Source: Candidatus Avispirillum sp. | GTDB taxonomy: Bacteria > Bacillota > Clostridia > Oscillospirales > CAG-272 | Assembly: GCA_045638055.1 (NCBI GenBank) | Contig: JAZUAR010000017.1 | Span: 1 to 43,703, forward strand | Direction of reading: 5' to 3' | DNA: 43,703 nucleotides | Part shown: piece after piece, positions 18,043-24,489 of the stretch | Layout: every line of letters starts with the position of its first letter | How positions within the stretch are numbered: position 1 is the stretch's first letter | The notes under the pieces: generated by a model | What the model was told of the DNA's origin: nothing | The model's input: only the letters and a program-made list of their open reading frames with translations | Databases searched by the model: none | Position numbers and translations under genes: made by a program

Positions 18043-18525
18043 TCAAACATTCTCCTTAATTTTATAATTGATATATACATAATTACTTCCGTTTAGCATA
18101 CAGTGCATGCCGAAAGAGAAGATCAAAAGGGATAGAAATATGAAGGGCCATATTGTTGTTCCCATCAAAACATTAGTGATTATGAACCCAACAAGGCTTA
18201 TAAACATAAGAATATCGCAGATAACTGCGGGAATATTCCCGAAGAAATGTATGAGTCCCAATCTTTTATGGTTCGGATATAATTTTCCGAACTCATCGCT
18301 GCGGCATCTTGAACAGGTTATAATGGCTGCCATTGTAACAGCCCCCGCAAGACCGCCCCAGAACAGCGCGCCTGAAATATAGGTTACAGCCATTGTTTTT
18401 TCCGCCATTTCAACACCGAAGGGCATCAAAACAATTGAAGCGGAAAGAACAAGCATGAATGCAATGTATATAAAAAGCATTCCTCGGCGCTGCCTGATTC
18501 CTTTATTTTTGCTTTTTATTGACAT
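18043..18525 (-). CDS. Small polytopic membrane protein (about 4 TM)
   Basis: Hydrophobic segments LFIYIAFMLVLSASIVLMPF, ISGALFWGGLAGAVTMAAII, IPAVICDILMFISLVGFIITNVL and IWPFIFLSLLIFSFGMHCML. Its stop is 3 nt before the giant gene ATG. Start at ATG 18525 (TTG at 18546 is possible). Confidence 0.65.
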   Translation of the reverse strand: MSIKSKNKGIRQRRGMLFIYIAFMLVLSASIVLMPFGVEMAEKTMAVTYISGALFWGGLAGAVTMAAIITCSRCRSDEFGKLYPNHKRLGLIHFFGNIPAVICDILMFISLVGFIITNVLMGTTIWPFIFLSLLIFSFGMHCMLNGSNYVYINYKIKENV

Positions 18526-18538
18526 CCTGCACCAAGCC

Positions 18539-19123
18539 TCACTCAATTATTTCTGAGCTTCCGGTGAAGGACATCTCAACATCGATCGTAAATACGGAGG
18601 GATATTCTGCCTTAGGGGATGAATCTGCACCGTCGATCACAAGGGATGAGGTTTCTCCCGCTACGGGAGCATCTGCTGTAAGAAGAGTTGTTTCTCCTGC
18701 TGCGGGTGCATCCGCTGTGAGAAGGGTAGTTTCTCCTGCTGCAGGTGCGTCTGTTGCGAGGAGAGTAGTTTCTCCTGCACACTGCTCGAGAAGCGTTGTT
18801 TCGTTTCCGGAAGTGGAAAGCTCCTCTGTGCCGACCCCGATGGGAGTATGATCAGGAGTTGACTGAACTCTGCCGGAATGGCTTATTCTGTCGGTGATCT
18901 TTCCTCGCTCTGCGTTTACAGGGCTGGGCTTATACGCCTTATTACCGCTTGTTTCATTCTGACGGCGAATCTTTTCGATCGCCTTCTTTGCTGTGCGGCC
19001 TGAAATATCTCCGTACAGCTTAGGCACATCAAGAAGGAAGAACAATGCCACCGCAACAAGGAAGAAAAATGCTGCAGCAATATAAGATGCAATAGATAAT
19101 GTCTGAAGCAATTCAACTGTCAT
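18539..19123 (-). CDS. Single-pass membrane protein with tandem GETTLL(T/A)ADAP(A/V)A repeats
   Basis: N-terminal TM IASYIAAAFFFLVAVALFFLL, then a basic juxtamembrane stretch, then NETTLL, GETTLLATDAPAA, GETTLLTADAPAA, GETTLLTADAPVA and GETSSL. The ATG shares one base with the kinase stop (TAATG), with an AAAGGAGG RBS. Confidence 0.8.
   Translation of the reverse strand: MTVELLQTLSIASYIAAAFFFLVAVALFFLLDVPKLYGDISGRTAKKAIEKIRRQNETSGNKAYKPSPVNAERGKITDRISHSGRVQSTPDHTPIGVGTEELSTSGNETTLLEQCAGETTLLATDAPAAGETTLLTADAPAAGETTLLTADAPVAGETSSLVIDGADSSPKAEYPSVFTIDVEMSFTGSSEIIE
18641..18806 (-). repeat. 39-bp (13-codon) tandem repeat, about 4 copies, inside the GETTLL protein gene
   Basis: gtttctcc recurs at 18651, 18690, 18729 and 18768 (period 39 nt), with near-identical flanks. 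Confidence 0.85.
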
Positions 19124-21674: not shown

Positions 21675-23156
21675 TCAATAAAGTCTGAACTCGAAATCCT
21701 CGTTTGCCAAACGGATAGTATCACCGTGGGAAATGGGAGTTTCCACGCCGCTGGGGATAATATCACCGTTTACGTATGTATGGTTCTTGGAATTTACGTC
21801 CACAACAAAATATTCACCGTTGCGTGTGATGAAATCGGCATGACTGCGGCTGATTGCAGTATTGTCGCCAATAAAGTAATCAACGTAGCTTCTTTCCTTA
21901 CCCACACGGAATACAGGCTTATTGAGAGAAACTCTCTCGTTGTTCTTCTTGCGGATAATGTGGGGATTGATCGCCTGTGTGGGATTGTTTGCCACTGTCA
22001 GCACAGTGGTCTCGCCGCTTGTGCCGCCGCCGAGAACAGTTGTCTCACCAAAGTTTGCCGCCTGACCCTGAGGTGCCTGTCTGGGCACGTATGCAGGCTG
22101 CTGAGCGGGAGCTTCCATCTTCTTTGCTGCAGGCTGAGCTGTAGGCTGCGCCTGAGGCTGAGATGCAGATGCAGGAGCGGGAGCTGCCTGACCGGGAATT
22201 GCAAAGCTGGGCATCATACCGGGCTTTGCTGACTGAGCGGGAGCCGACTTTGCTGCAGGCTGAGGAGCGCCCTTCTCGGATGCTCGCTGAGCCTTATAGA
22301 GCTCGACGTTCTCCTTGCTGTAATGCATAAGAAGATCGAGCATGCTCATCTTCTTCTGACCGTTCTGAGGTGCAGGCTGCGCTGCAGGCTGTGCCTGAGG
22401 CTGAGGAGCAGCAGTTGCTCTGGGCTGATTTACGGGAGGAATGTTAACGGGTGAACCAAAATTCTGCTCAGGCGTCTTTGCGGAGGGTGCGGGATCGGGT
22501 TTTGTTACCTGAGGCTGTGCCTGAGGCTGTACCTGGGGCTGAGCCTGGGGCTGTACCTGAGGCTGAGCTGCAGGAGCGGGCTTTACTGTTGCTGTCTGTG
22601 CAGGCTGAGCGCCTGACTTAAGAGACTGCAGAAGCTCCTTGAAATCTGTGAGAGAAACCATGGGGGAGCTGTTCAGGAAATTGATGATCTTAATAATATG
22701 CTCGCAGTTTTCTGTCTGATCAAACTGTGTGCTGAACATAATATCCTTGAAAAATGCGCTGAGGTCTGTTGCGGGAATTCCTGCAATGGGGAGGCAGATA
22801 AGAGATGCCTCACAGGTAGAAACGTCAGCGAAGATATAATCAAGATCGAGAATGACAGATGCAGGATCGATCATATAATCCTCAGCAGACAGAAGTCCGT
22901 CCACGATACCCTCGAACACACCGAGAAGTCTCTTCTTATTAACGGTACCTGTAAAGAACTGTCTTACGGATACCTTGGAGGAAACGTTGTACTTGATGAA
23001 TTTACGGGCATCCATCTGAGTGAAGAAGGTTGTCAGAAATCCGTTGATCTTGTTGTTTGTCAGCATTCCGAGACTCATAGAGTCTATCTGATCGTCTGCC
23101 TTTATTTCATATACAAGGTAAGAGTTCGTACCCTGATTTTCATGTGTAAATTCCAT
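21675..23156 (-). CDS. FHA-domain protein: unknown N-terminal domain, Pro/Gln/Ala-rich linker, two GETTVL motifs, C-terminal FHA
   Basis: The C-terminus VFRVGKERSYVDYFIGDNTAISRSHADFITRNGEYFVVDVNSKNHTYVNG...ISHGDTIRLANEDFEF carries the FHA G-R...S-x-x-H...N-G signature. ATG at 23156 is preceded by AAGGAG. Confidence 0.9.
   Translation of the reverse strand: MEFTHENQGTNSYLVYEIKADDQIDSMSLGMLTNNKINGFLTTFFTQMDARKFIKYNVSSKVSVRQFFTGTVNKKRLLGVFEGIVDGLLSAEDYMIDPASVILDLDYIFADVSTCEASLICLPIAGIPATDLSAFFKDIMFSTQFDQTENCEHIIKIINFLNSSPMVSLTDFKELLQSLKSGAQPAQTATVKPAPAAQPQVQPQAQPQVQPQAQPQVTKPDPAPSAKTPEQNFGSPVNIPPVNQPRATAAPQPQAQPAAQPAPQNGQKKMSMLDLLMHYSKENVELYKAQRASEKGAPQPAAKSAPAQSAKPGMMPSFAIPGQAAPAPASASQPQAQPTAQPAAKKMEAPAQQPAYVPRQAPQGQAANFGETTVLGGGTSGETTVLTVANNPTQAINPHIIRKKNNERVSLNKPVFRVGKERSYVDYFIGDNTAISRSHADFITRNGEYFVVDVNSKNHTYVNGDIIPSGVETPISHGDTIRLANEDFEFRLY
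22508..22567 (-). repeat. 12-bp tandem repeat x5 encoding (QPQ[AV])n in the FHA protein linker
   Basis: cctgaggctgtg cctgaggctgta cctggggctgag cctggggctgta cctgaggctgag. Confidence 0.85.
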
Positions 23157-23166
23157 GTTTATCTCC

Positions 23167-24489
23167 TTAGTCGTCATATTCACAAAGAACAATGAAGTTC
23201 CATGCGGAGGAGCTCTTTACGGGAGCGGATCCATCCTGAGAAAATACACCGGCATCAAAATACTTGGTTTCGATAACGATTTTGCCGTCAGTGTTAATAT
23301 AGCCCCATCTGTCCTCAACCATAACGGGTGCCATACCCATAGAGAAGGACTTAGCGCCTTCAAACTCAGGCTTAATCACGATTTTACCCTTCTGGTCTGC
23401 ATAACCCCACTTATCGCCCTTCTTTACGGCAATATAGGAATCATTTGAAGCTGCAATGGATGCGCCGTCAAACTTTTCTTTGCCGACCTGCTTGCCATTA
23501 TGATCTATAAAAAGGTACTTATCGCCCTTACGCGCAACAATAATATTGAATGTGGAGCAGAATCCGTTGGAATCAAGGAGGATCTCATCGTAATCAAAGC
23601 CTGTAACAGCCTTCAGCTTATCATCGATAAGAGCCCACTTGCCATCCTTCTTTACTGCAGCAACGTTGTTTGCGAATGCACCTGCATATTCATATTCAAA
23701 CTTCTTTTCTTTGAAATCGGCATCAATATATCCGTACTTGCCGTCAAGCTGAGCGGGTGCATAGCCGCAGCCGAAGGAGCCGAGATACTGATAATCCTTT
23801 TCTCCGATAAGCTTTTTGTTGCCCTTGAGGTCCATATAATAGTACTCACCGTCAAAGCAACAGGGAATAACGCCTGTTTCAGCATCATATGCACCAACAT
23901 ACTGATACTGAAGGCGGATCTTACGTGTACCGTCCTTAGAGGTCATACCCCACTTGCCCTTTTCCTCAACGGCAACGTAGTTTACATCCTCCTGAAGGTG
24001 CCAGCTGGAAATTGTTGTTAAGGATACATATTTTTCAATGCATTTGGTGGAAAGCTCAGCCTTGAGGCTGTTGATCTCCTCATTATCCTTAATTGTGGCA
24101 GTGGCAGCTTTAAGAACCTTAATAGCCTCTCCATACTGTGCCTTTGAAATATAATAGTTGGCCTTGTTCACATAAGGAACAGGGTCCTCGGGAGACATTG
24201 CGATAGCCTTATCGCAGGTAGCGATAAAGCCGTTTATATCACCCATCTTGTAGTACATATCGGCAATCTTCAATACGATATCGTACTCCTTGGGGTTAAG
24301 CTCGAGAGCATTCTGATAGTTCTCAAGCGCATCTACATAAATACCTTTTTCCTCGTACAAAGCCGCCTTCTTCATATAATCCTTATAAGCAGCCTTATCC
24401 TCGCTCTGACCCTTAATAGCTCCCATCCAGGCAATCGCCGTAAACACAATAAGAGCAACTAATACAAGAGCAGCATTTCCTTTTTTCAT
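23167..24489 (-). CDS. Membrane-anchored TPR plus WG/KWG-repeat protein
   Basis: N-terminal TM. TPR-like helices (YEEKGIYVDALENYQNALELNP, KMGDINGFIATCDKAIAMSP, YISKAQYGEAIKVLK). Then at least 6 repeats of the KGKWGxxxxxG / GKYGYID / DRWGYIN type. Confidence 0.85.
   Translation of the reverse strand: MKKGNAALVLVALIVFTAIAWMGAIKGQSEDKAAYKDYMKKAALYEEKGIYVDALENYQNALELNPKEYDIVLKIADMYYKMGDINGFIATCDKAIAMSPEDPVPYVNKANYYISKAQYGEAIKVLKAATATIKDNEEINSLKAELSTKCIEKYVSLTTISSWHLQEDVNYVAVEEKGKWGMTSKDGTRKIRLQYQYVGAYDAETGVIPCCFDGEYYYMDLKGNKKLIGEKDYQYLGSFGCGYAPAQLDGKYGYIDADFKEKKFEYEYAGAFANNVAAVKKDGKWALIDDKLKAVTGFDYDEILLDSNGFCSTFNIIVARKGDKYLFIDHNGKQVGKEKFDGASIAASNDSYIAVKKGDKWGYADQKGKIVIKPEFEGAKSFSMGMAPVMVEDRWGYINTDGKIVIETKYFDAGVFSQDGSAPVKSSSAWNFIVLCEYDD

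Follow-up and report, generated by a model that had tools for sequence, protein, structure and literature searches.

A candidate threonine-phosphorylation cassette in the Tad-type pilus locus of gut Clostridia, recurring beside type VII secretion systems and alone

The locus considered here, a Tad-type pilus operon with genes for a Ser/Thr kinase, a PP2C phosphatase and a forkhead-associated (FHA) protein, lies in a 43,703-nucleotide stretch of DNA from Candidatus Avispirillum sp. (assembly GCA_045638055.1, contig JAZUAR010000017.1, positions 1 to 43,703 of the forward strand; hereafter the window), and several described systems resemble it in part. In the threonine phosphorylation pathway of the type VI secretion system (T6SS), known from Pseudomonas aeruginosa and Agrobacterium, the kinase PpkA, the PP2C phosphatase PppA and the FHA protein Fha1 gate the machine post-translationally, and the FHA protein is itself phosphorylated on threonine (PMC5995506). 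In GarA of the Actinobacteria, the polypeptide that contains the FHA domain also has an unstructured segment whose ETTS motif serves as a phospho-switch (PMC5448819; also PMC8546545). The Esr systems of oral Actinomycetales, reported in a 2026 preprint, are comprised of the surface sensor EsrA, the kinase EsrE, the phosphatase EsrF and the FHA protein EsrG; the sensor acts through the kinase on a threonine in the disordered middle of a protein built from an N-terminal domain, an intrinsically disordered region and an FHA domain, and one copy of the system controls Esx secretion (PMC13622651).

The components of the type VII secretion system (T7SS) variants T7SSd and T7SSe were defined by Garrett et al. 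2024 (PMC11217815). In the sections of that paper drawn on here, TsdD/TseD is a kinase with a helical extracellular part, TsdH/TseH a single-pass transmembrane (TM) protein with an unstructured cytoplasmic region, TsdI/TseI a large Ig-like protein with a signal peptide as well as a TM helix at the C-terminus, TseF a PPM phosphatase and TseJ a DUF6382-FHA protein. The T7SSd/e ATPase is described there as carrying FHA domains competent to bind phosphothreonine, Tad genes are placed beside T7SSg/h, and a TadZ-like domain is recorded in T7SSf alongside a DUF6382-FHA protein. The same sections make no mention of a Tad-embedded cassette, of the ETT motif discussed below or of a pseudokinase fold for DUF6382. 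Our literature search turned up no account of a Firmicutes Tad system controlled by a kinase, PP2C and FHA set, and the combination of Tad/TadZ, FHA, kinase and Clostridia gave this T7SS-variant paper alone as relevant, to the extent of those sections.

Tad pili are major colonisation factors. The window holds six adjacent genes (18043-24489, all on the minus strand) for a TPR/WG-repeat protein, an FHA protein, a PP2C phosphatase, a kinase, a protein with a threonine-motif tail (the Thr-tail protein) and a protein with four TM helices (the 4-TM protein), just as the original prediction had listed them from the letters of the DNA, except that the start of the FHA gene moves to 23156. With moderate confidence, we read the region as a cassette that would control a clostridial Tad-type pilus locus by threonine phosphorylation and so gate pilus assembly. 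The cassette has six parts, namely the kinase, the PP2C phosphatase, an adaptor joining a presumed pseudokinase domain to an FHA domain, the Thr-tail protein, the 4-TM protein and a giant Ig-like surface protein, and the module extends to the gene of this last protein (11638-18039). It had been proposed as self-contained; instead, it is embedded in a Tad operon, giant included. The genes are arranged as follows.

11638-18039, minus strand: giant surface protein, 2133 amino acids (aa), with signal peptide, Ig-like repeats, C-terminal TM helix and short basic tail; TsdI/TseI type; directly downstream of the six genes.
18043-18546, minus strand: 4-TM protein, 167 aa, assigned by hydropathy.
18539-19123, minus strand: Thr-tail single-pass membrane protein, 194 aa, one N-terminal TM helix; TsdH type.
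19123-20826, minus strand: TM Hanks Ser/Thr kinase, 567 aa, Pfam Pkinase E 1.2e-48; TsdD/TseD type.
20846-21613, minus strand: cytoplasmic PP2C/PPM phosphatase, 255 aa, Pfam PP2C_2 E 1.6e-9; TseF type.
21675-23156, minus strand: cytoplasmic FHA adaptor, 493 aa, with DUF6382 domain, linker bearing two GETTVL motifs and FHA domain; TseJ type; no TM helix predicted.
23167-24489, minus strand: TPR and WG-repeat protein, 440 aa, with N-terminal TM anchor at residues 7-25 preceded by KK.

To judge from its protein families, the window cassette is the published T7SSd/e set TsdD/H/I with TseF and TseJ, seated on a Tad machine without EssC or WXG100. What had been called an unusual sensor set is accordingly familiar, its parts matching TsdD/H/I and TseF/J as those proteins are described in the cited sections of PMC11217815, with the TPR/WG protein as a Tad accessory.

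All long open reading frames (ORFs) at 11.1-36 kb of the window are on the minus strand and tightly packed, with short gaps or overlaps between the neighbouring genes of the Tad-kinase cluster. A promoter-like site (36052-36024) and a terminator with a 14-bp stem (36516-36482) both lie upstream of TadZ, the first gene, and the terminator/promoter scan returned no strong terminator inside the cluster. Taken together, the packing, the upstream signals and the lack of anything comparable inside indicate that the six genes are the distal half of one long Tad-type operon. The Tad core families are present in the window, as a TadA ATPase, TadB/TadC platform proteins, a TadZ receiver domain and an A24 peptidase, and the cluster is flanked by ordinary metabolism and sporulation genes.

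Conservation of this arrangement was followed by a profile scan with an alignment of the FHA protein, using one genome per species, which gave 241 loci. The best 80 of the 241 were fetched with 10-kb flanks and joined by one metagenomic locus, and the window proteins were mapped onto the resulting 81 loci (L001-L081), which come from Acutalibacteraceae, Oscillospiraceae, Ruminococcaceae, Lachnospiraceae and relatives. The loci include those of Ruminococcus sp. JE7B6 (L077), Ruminococcoides intestinale CLA-JM-H38 (L027) and Candidatus Soleaferrea massiliensis AP7 (L065). A near-fixed gene order runs through them: Tad genes, A24 peptidase, TPR/WG, FHA, PP2C, kinase, Thr-tail protein, (4-TM protein), giant. 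The denominators below are the loci with enough flank; counts for the Thr-tail and 4-TM proteins, which are short and fast-evolving, are lower bounds, and the 10-kb flanks take in the whole of the giant ORF in 10 of 57 cases.

Tad genes upstream: 67 of 68 loci.
PP2C directly after the FHA gene: 76 of 80 loci.
Kinase: 70 of 76 loci.
Thr-tail protein: at least 65 of 75 loci.
Giant protein: 54 of 64 loci.
4-TM protein: at least 39 of 64 loci.

In five rearranged loci (L057, L058, L064, L073, L076) the FHA gene stands right after TadZ or TadA. No FtsK_SpoIIIE or WXG100 domain match, as would mark an EssC-type ATPase or WXG100 protein, was obtained among the window genes, and phmmer searches of the window and L001-L081 with the EssC and WXG100 proteins of L082-L086 returned nothing but the FHA domain. 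At least 241 genomes at species level, from Oscillospirales and Lachnospirales, contain the locus type. Gut metagenomes abound in close copies, the best 120 clusters listed being all at least 84% identical, and the locus type is widespread in abundant gut commensals.

More distant relatives place the same parts in other surroundings. Contigs of eight distant members of the kinase ectodomain family (23-32% identity) were examined, with the following layouts.

L082 to L085: kinase, single-TM protein with an acidic tail of TTLL or PTVL repeats, Big_13 protein of 1473-1849 aa, WXG100 protein and EssC with a canonical FHA domain; T7SSd layout.
L090: T7SSe, with EssC, WXG100, DUF6382-FHA protein, PP2C, kinase, small TM proteins and giant; order as in the window.
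L086: T7SSe, with the same parts beside EssC in a different order.
L087: A24 peptidase, DUF6382-FHA protein, PP2C, kinase, 157-aa protein and 1080-aa Ig protein; housekeeping flanks.
L088 and L091: kinase and Ig protein.
L089: FHA protein, PP2C, kinase, 183-aa protein and giant, next to genes for an MreB-like protein and an AgI/II adhesin.

The cassette is thus conserved and linked to three kinds of context, being the Tad operon, the T7SSd/e locus and a stand-alone setting. This suggests a cassette that is portable between machines, and we tentatively propose, at somewhat less than an even chance, that the trio of kinase, Thr-tail protein and giant is a portable surface contact-sensing switch to which PP2C and the adaptor were added in Bacillota, and which has been fitted to two or more ATP-driven envelope machines of unrelated kinds, Tad pili in gut Clostridia and T7SSd/e, while also occurring alone. 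The recurrence of the same cassette with a different machine and by itself argues for a different reading of the T7SSd/e 'core' genes; if the proposal holds, TsdD/H/I would be regulators or sensors, not parts of the secretion conduit, and pilus deployment in many abundant gut commensals would be gated post-translationally by whatever the hypervariable tip of the giant touches.

Further features of the distant contigs are recorded here. In L089 (1357-7280 and 14501-17623) the cassette follows an MreB-like_C protein and genes without a Pfam match and precedes an AgI/II-type adhesin, which may represent a third kind of partner. In L086 the T7SSe kinase gene is immediately preceded by that of an 852-aa TIR-domain protein (7386-9944). 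The DUF6382-FHA protein of this same locus (18691-20310) is extended at its C-terminus by about 190 aa, which include the segment YDYIVVDME, near-identical to a segment of the window TadZ; a TadZ fusion was considered and is unproven, the match being 18 aa long (pairwise E 8e-4) in a region with no Pfam ParA or TadZ domain.

The enzymes at the centre of the cassette were predicted to be active and to lack the PASTA repeats of housekeeping wall sensors, and both expectations were borne out as far as motifs and models can tell. The kinase appears to be active, with K41 in WAVKE, YRDMKPAN, DFG and APE all present and a Gly loop that reads GHGGMS, and so does the phosphatase, whose motifs DGMGG, GDTR, SDG and DN are readable; the best NCBIfam model of the latter is Stp1/IreP, at 156 bits against a cut-off of 230. 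A detail beyond the original prediction is that the activation loop of the kinase itself carries GETT, and the corresponding motif [AGE][DE]TT[CG][LI]GT recurs in most of 73 kinase orthologues. The kinase is divided as follows.

20071-20793, minus strand: kinase domain, within 19123-20826.
20305-20325, minus strand: activation-loop motif GETTGIG; loop sequence LGETTGIGTIGYAAPE.
19930-19986, minus strand: the single TM helix, residues 281-299, with KKKQKRK on its cytoplasmic side.
19126-19929, minus strand: ectodomain, 268 aa, C-terminal to the TM helix.

The ectodomain is predicted to be a TPR-like helical solenoid. Its AlphaFold2 (AF2) model, built on an alignment of 71 homologues, is all-helical with 13 helices (predicted local distance difference test, pLDDT, 96.2; predicted template-modelling score, pTM, 0.90). 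Foldseek comparison of this model with the PDB gave no match at E<=1e-3; the best of the weak matches, with TM-scores of at most 0.41, belong to TPR or solenoid proteins (BamD, Ctr9, LGN, kinesin light chain, 14-3-3). In a phmmer search of 1.84 billion representative proteins, the ectodomain alone matched 356 clusters at E<=1e-3. In 97 of the 150 clusters listed, the protein is about 500-900 aa long and the matched part lies C-terminal to a kinase domain; the ectodomain defines a family that is almost always fused in this way. Pfam finds no PASTA repeats in the kinase, and the NCBIfam PASTA-kinase equivalog NF033483 scores 194.7 bits against a cut-off of 450 and covers profile positions 1-278 of 563, the kinase half. 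Since neither Pfam, the model nor NCBIfam reveals PASTA, the kinase is not a PASTA or PrkC-type sensor.

The adaptor unites three elements that bear on the proposed switch. The maximal ORF of its gene is 21675-23192, and the database start (protein P0271) is M13 of this ORF, at 23156; with this true start there is no overlap with the TPR/WG gene. Its closest species-level relative, from an Acutalibacteraceae metagenome-assembled genome, is 59% identical.

22683-23138, minus strand: DUF6382 domain, Pfam E 3e-20; AF2 model with pLDDT 93.1.
21999-22049, minus strand: pair of GETTVL motifs within the linker, spaced by 11 residues and some 30 residues N-terminal to the FHA domain.
21708-21908, minus strand: FHA domain, Pfam E 9.5e-13.

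The model of the DUF6382 domain, a compact protein-kinase-like fold, gave 157 Foldseek matches in the PDB at E<=1e-3, every one of them to a kinase or pseudokinase, including the kinase homology domain of Rv3910/MviN (3uqc; query TM-score, TMq, 0.64), YukC/EssB (6z0f) and the N-terminal part of the pIP501 type IV protein TraF (8cba). As the domain is without a Gly-loop, HRD or DFG motif, it is presumed to be a pseudokinase, a model-based assignment of a fold to DUF6382.

That the FHA protein carries bait motifs of its own, as had been proposed, was upheld. Exactly two GETT motifs occur in 115 of 120 homologues, and at least one [DE]TTx[LIVMF] motif in the FHA protein of 72 of the 81 loci. The GETTVL columns are invariant in 22 homologues, while the Pro/Gln/Ala-rich disordered linker around them is not alignable; the motifs are candidate phospho-acceptor and FHA-docking sites. 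By sequence (phmmer against PDB sequences), the closest solved FHA domains are those of GarA (E 3.7e-8) and OdhI (E 1e-6). SRSH aligns with SRRH and SKNHT with SLNGT, with the Asn of the S-x-N-x-T turn kept, as is N-x-T...NG. The linker also holds FAIPGQ repeats and, at about 22250-22330 on the minus strand (residues ~268-292), a conserved helix-like island, KKMSMLDLLMHYSKENVELYKAQ, that is found as well in the distant stand-alone cassette of L087.

Further copies of the motif reside in the Thr-tail protein. Its disordered tail contains NETTLL, three copies of GETTLL and one GETSSL (18641-18805, minus strand; motif scan), and, because the N-terminal TM helix is followed by basic residues, the positive-inside rule orients the protein with its N-terminus outside and its tail in the cytoplasm, accessible to the kinase. 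Among 66 orthologues, 57 have one to six xTTx[LIVMF] motifs and the remainder ET[DESAM]VL, and the T7SS-linked counterparts have TTLL or PTVL repeats. The 194-aa protein is likely to be a multivalent kinase substrate and FHA docking platform. Across the FHA protein, the kinase and the Thr-tail protein (1254 aa), [DE]TTx[LIVMF] occurs seven times, against 0.25 copies expected by composition, and a single copy is found in the other ~11,500 aa encoded in the window. G-E-T-T-(V/L)-L is put forward as a candidate phospho-acceptor motif that mirrors the activation loop of the kinase. At the very end of the Thr-tail protein (18539-18600, minus strand), after the non-conserved acidic tail, stands a conserved segment, FTIDVEMSFTGSSEIIE, also present in L014, L017, L024, L035 and L063 with the pattern F-x-I-E-Y-E-I-T-F-I-H-T-[DS]-E-[IV]-I, which may be a second binding element. 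The 4-TM protein has no Pfam or NCBIfam match; it is a frequent, though not universal, member of the cassette and was not found in the T7SS loci sampled.

The giant is the best candidate for the partner or sensor of the kinase ectodomain. Pfam assigns it Big_13, other Big families and MBG, and a search of PDB sequences gave no match. Its membrane-proximal C-terminal part (11656-13527, minus strand) is the conserved one: residues 1505-2128 are 32-35% identical to T7SSd-like giants (E 1e-74 to 1e-77), and among close loci there is collinearity over the C-terminal 800-1200 aa (44-52% identity) and none over the N-terminal half, even in L001, where the kinase is 84% identical. The distal half behaves like a diversifying surface tip, and the constancy of both the membrane-proximal part and the kinase ectodomain makes these two regions natural partners. 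A large Ig-like protein follows the kinase, with zero to two small genes between them, in all eight distant contexts; the conserved candidate for an extracytoplasmic partner is the giant, which belongs to the module. An OmpL47-type beta-barrel model of NCBIfam matches residues 595-638 (49.7 bits, above the cut-off of 40), and there is an MBG-like segment near the N-terminus.

A mechanism can be proposed from these parts. The variable distal half of the giant would meet a ligand or surface, and its conserved membrane-proximal part would signal to the kinase ectodomain. The kinase would autophosphorylate its GETTGIG loop and then the GETT(V/L)L motifs of the Thr-tail protein and the adaptor, whereupon the FHA domain of the adaptor could dock on phosphothreonine, be it on the membrane platform, on the kinase or in its own linker as in GarA. 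Such docking might concentrate the pseudokinase domain at the membrane or unlock it there, and the domain would then gate pilus assembly by engaging the Tad platform (most likely TadZ/TadA), until PP2C resets the switch. With up to five sites in the tail protein and two in the adaptor, multivalent clustering at the membrane is plausible, and so is self-binding of the GarA kind. The link to TadZ and TadA is drawn from membership of the operon, from the rearranged loci that join FHA to TadZ or TadA, and from the T7SSf systems in which the consulted sections of PMC11217815 report a DUF6382-FHA protein together with a TadZ-like protein.

Several points weigh against this proposal. We infer every arrow of the mechanism, and the output onto TadZ/TadA is its weakest step. 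In the FHA domain, the GR of the phosphate-binding loop is replaced by GK, as it is in 78 of the 81 orthologues, and with this Arg to Lys exchange the binding of phosphothreonine is likely but not assured. The T7SSb EssC FHA domains, in the relevant sections of PMC11217815, are without a phosphothreonine site and yet bind a pseudokinase. Motif variants such as ETDVL, ETEVL, ETSVL and PTVL point to different acceptor threonines. Of the 76 loci that extend 3 kb or more downstream of the FHA gene, 6 have no kinase beside it. Moreover, the cassettes of L087, L088 and L089 have no Tad or T7SS genes within 8-10 kb, and such stand-alone copies suggest that the primary business of the cassette may be the giant protein itself.

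This last point leads to the best surviving alternative, which we nevertheless consider rather unlikely, namely that the cassette serves the giant as an adhesin or sensor unit (in its deployment, turnover or contact signalling) and not the pilus, and that proximity to Tad and T7SS genes reflects shared use of the surface. An Ig-like protein after the kinase in eight of eight contexts, including L087, L088, L089 and L091, which have neither Tad nor T7SS genes close by, and conservation of precisely the membrane-proximal part of the giant would both be expected if this were so. The cassette lies, however, inside one tightly packed Tad operon, with Tad genes upstream in 67 of 68 loci, and the phosphothreonine-competent FHA domain of the T7SSd/e ATPase, described in the consulted sections of PMC11217815 and readable as GR...S..H...NG in the EssC protein of L082, argues for direct coupling to the machine. 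Even in L087 an A24 prepilin peptidase adjoins the cassette, and pilus genes may therefore be encoded at another site of the genome concerned.

An improbable alternative is that the pseudokinase-FHA protein and the small membrane proteins form a structural scaffold independent of phosphorylation, after the manner of EssB/EssC, with ETT as a plain binding motif. The resemblance of DUF6382 to YukC/EssB, the replacement of the canonical FHA Arg by Lys and the precedent of T7SSb, whose FHA domains bind a pseudokinase without a phosphothreonine site (PMC11217815, same sections), all accord with such a scaffold. It is harder to reconcile with an apparently active kinase (70 of 76) and PP2C (76 of 80) kept by the FHA gene, or with an ETT motif that copies the activation-loop sequence of the kinase; the phosphothreonine pocket, besides, retains its Ser, His and Asn, and Lys can still bind phosphate.

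The original prediction had named both the KWG-repeat (here TPR/WG) protein and the giant as candidate extracytoplasmic partners, and had proposed co-occurrence across genomes as a check. The outcome is divided: the kinase tracks the giant, which follows it in eight of eight distant contexts, while the TPR/WG protein tracks the A24 peptidase. It is very unlikely that the TPR/WG protein is the extracytoplasmic sensor feeding the kinase. The protein has TPR repeats at residues 38-146 and four WG_beta_rep stretches (Pfam E 6e-31) and is predicted to be extracellular and membrane-anchored, its gene adjoins the FHA gene in the window and in 31 of 73 loci, and beta-propeller-type sensors do feed kinases in Esr (PMC13622651). 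Against this, the gene directly follows that of the A24 peptidase in 70 of 70 loci, is separated from the cassette by pseudopilin-like genes in the loci where it does not adjoin FHA, and accompanies the kinase family in none of its eight non-Tad contexts, whether T7SS or stand-alone; it is thus best regarded as a Tad accessory, and probably not as the kinase's sensor partner. TPR proteins are ordinary accessories of pilus assembly, and the protein here has a weak PilW match, with no NCBIfam model reaching its cut-off; in the search of PDB sequences its TPR part alone finds a match and the WG-repeat region no solved relative. The last alternative, a housekeeping PrkC/PrpC pair whose place next to Tad genes is incidental, is close to refuted, for although the best NCBIfam models are Stk1/PknB for the kinase and Stp1 for the phosphatase, their scores fall far below the cut-offs (195 against 450, over profile positions 1-278 of 563, and 156 against 230), there is no PASTA, the pair is locked in cassette order across the 81 loci and the T7SS loci, and the window flanks are not of the rsgA/rpe type that is usual around prkC.

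The reading preferred here, of a phosphorylation cassette that gates the Tad machine, offers testable handles in the GETT(V/L)L motif, in a GarA-like FHA reader and in the giant as a candidate sensor with a variable distal half. The machine itself is encoded by the proximal half of the operon, where the gene of the A24 prepilin peptidase marks the border between the Tad structural genes and the kinase module. The remaining genes of the locus are these.

34763-35824, minus strand: TadZ, Pfam TadZ-like_ARD (atypical receiver domain), E 1e-48; first gene of the operon.
33506-34753, minus strand: TadA ATPase, Pfam T2SSE, E 7.5e-60.
32707-33549, minus strand: TadB-like platform protein, weak Pfam T2SSF match.
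31823-32692, minus strand: TadC platform protein, Pfam T2SSF, E 2.5e-14.
31555-31758, minus strand: Flp-like pilin ORF, 67 aa, between TadC and the TadE-like gene.
30736-31470, minus strand: TadE-like gene, weak Pfam TadE match.
27159-30731, minus strand: DUF5702/TadG-like protein, 1190 aa, Pfam DUF5702, E 6.5e-39.
26486-27178 and 25190-26458, minus strand: two uncharacterised genes.
24495-25178, minus strand: A24 prepilin peptidase, catalytic part only, Pfam Peptidase_A24, E 9e-12.
11101-11577, minus strand: 158-aa ORF with the A24 N-terminal domain alone, Pfam A24_N_bact, E 6.5e-13.

The 67-aa ORF (31555-31758), with a charged N-terminus, the segment SGEAN with its Gly and then a long hydrophobic stretch, is likely to be a Flp-type pilin; it has no NCBIfam match, and the Pfam scan was not made for this ORF. 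No literature on DUF5702 was found. The ORF with the A24 N-terminal domain adjoins TadZ in L057 and L073, stands just after the giant gene in the window and is possibly the last gene of the locus; together with the separate catalytic ORF (24495-25178), it may form a split prepilin peptidase. In L001 the gene of a Cas12a (Cpf1) nuclease (19623-21704) occupies the place after the giant where the window has this ORF, and its position marks the end of the conserved locus. Just upstream of the Tad promoter-like site, a strong terminator-like hairpin with a 14-bp stem comes after a 119-aa ORF for which no family match was obtained (36482-36940, minus strand).

Set beside the known systems, the cassette is closest in its parts to T7SSd/e, with which it shares the protein families and, in L090, the order of FHA, PP2C, kinase, small TM protein and giant. 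The window kinase ectodomain is homologous to theirs (E 1e-14 to 1e-28), and the tail proteins on both sides bear Thr-hydrophobic repeats. Unlike T7SSd/e, however, the window and the 81 loci have no EssC/TsxC ATPase, WXG100 protein (TsxA) or YukD-like gene, and the window cassette is embedded in a Tad operon and includes the 4-TM protein. T7SSb also pairs a pseudokinase fold with FHA at the cytoplasmic face, in EssB/YukC and EssC (PMC11217815, within the sections drawn on); in the window the two domains are instead part of one soluble protein with a Thr-motif linker, accompanied by an active-looking kinase and phosphatase.

The T6SS pathway of PpkA, PppA and Fha1 offers the parallel of a TM Hanks kinase, a PP2C phosphatase and an FHA protein encoded in the cluster of the machine they serve (PMC5995506). 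The machine in the window is Tad, in a Gram-positive envelope, with no T6SS core genes among the window genes, and its FHA protein carries a pseudokinase domain and scores 26.2 bits against the TagH/Fha1 model TIGR03354, where the cut-off is 120. The kinase ectodomains differ as well, being a predicted helical solenoid in the window and a VWA domain in PpkA. With GarA and OdhI, the window protein shares the FHA domain closest in sequence and an E-T-T-x motif that lies outside that domain, in an unstructured part of the protein; it departs from them in a doubled motif, set in a long linker after the pseudokinase domain of a 493-aa protein, in the Arg to Lys exchange in the phosphate loop, in a score of 35.5 bits against the OdhI equivalog, whose cut-off is 200, and in a context of an envelope machine as opposed to enzymes of the tricarboxylic acid cycle.

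Esr is similar in its surface sensor, its kinase/phosphatase pair and its threonine in the disordered middle of an FHA protein, the N-terminal pseudo-enzyme domain of which is variable, and in having one copy in a secretion locus. The MoxR ATPase, vWA, transglutaminase and beta-propeller families of Esr are absent from the window genes. The sensor candidate of the window is an Ig-repeat protein with a C-terminal TM helix, compared to a covalently attached, beta-propeller-tipped filament in Esr, and the N-terminal domain of the FHA protein is a presumed pseudokinase in the window and a pseudophosphatase in Esr. The novelty of the present locus resides in the coupling of a Thr-phosphorylation cassette with a defined motif to a Tad machine, an arrangement conceptually anticipated by T6SS, T7SS and Esr.

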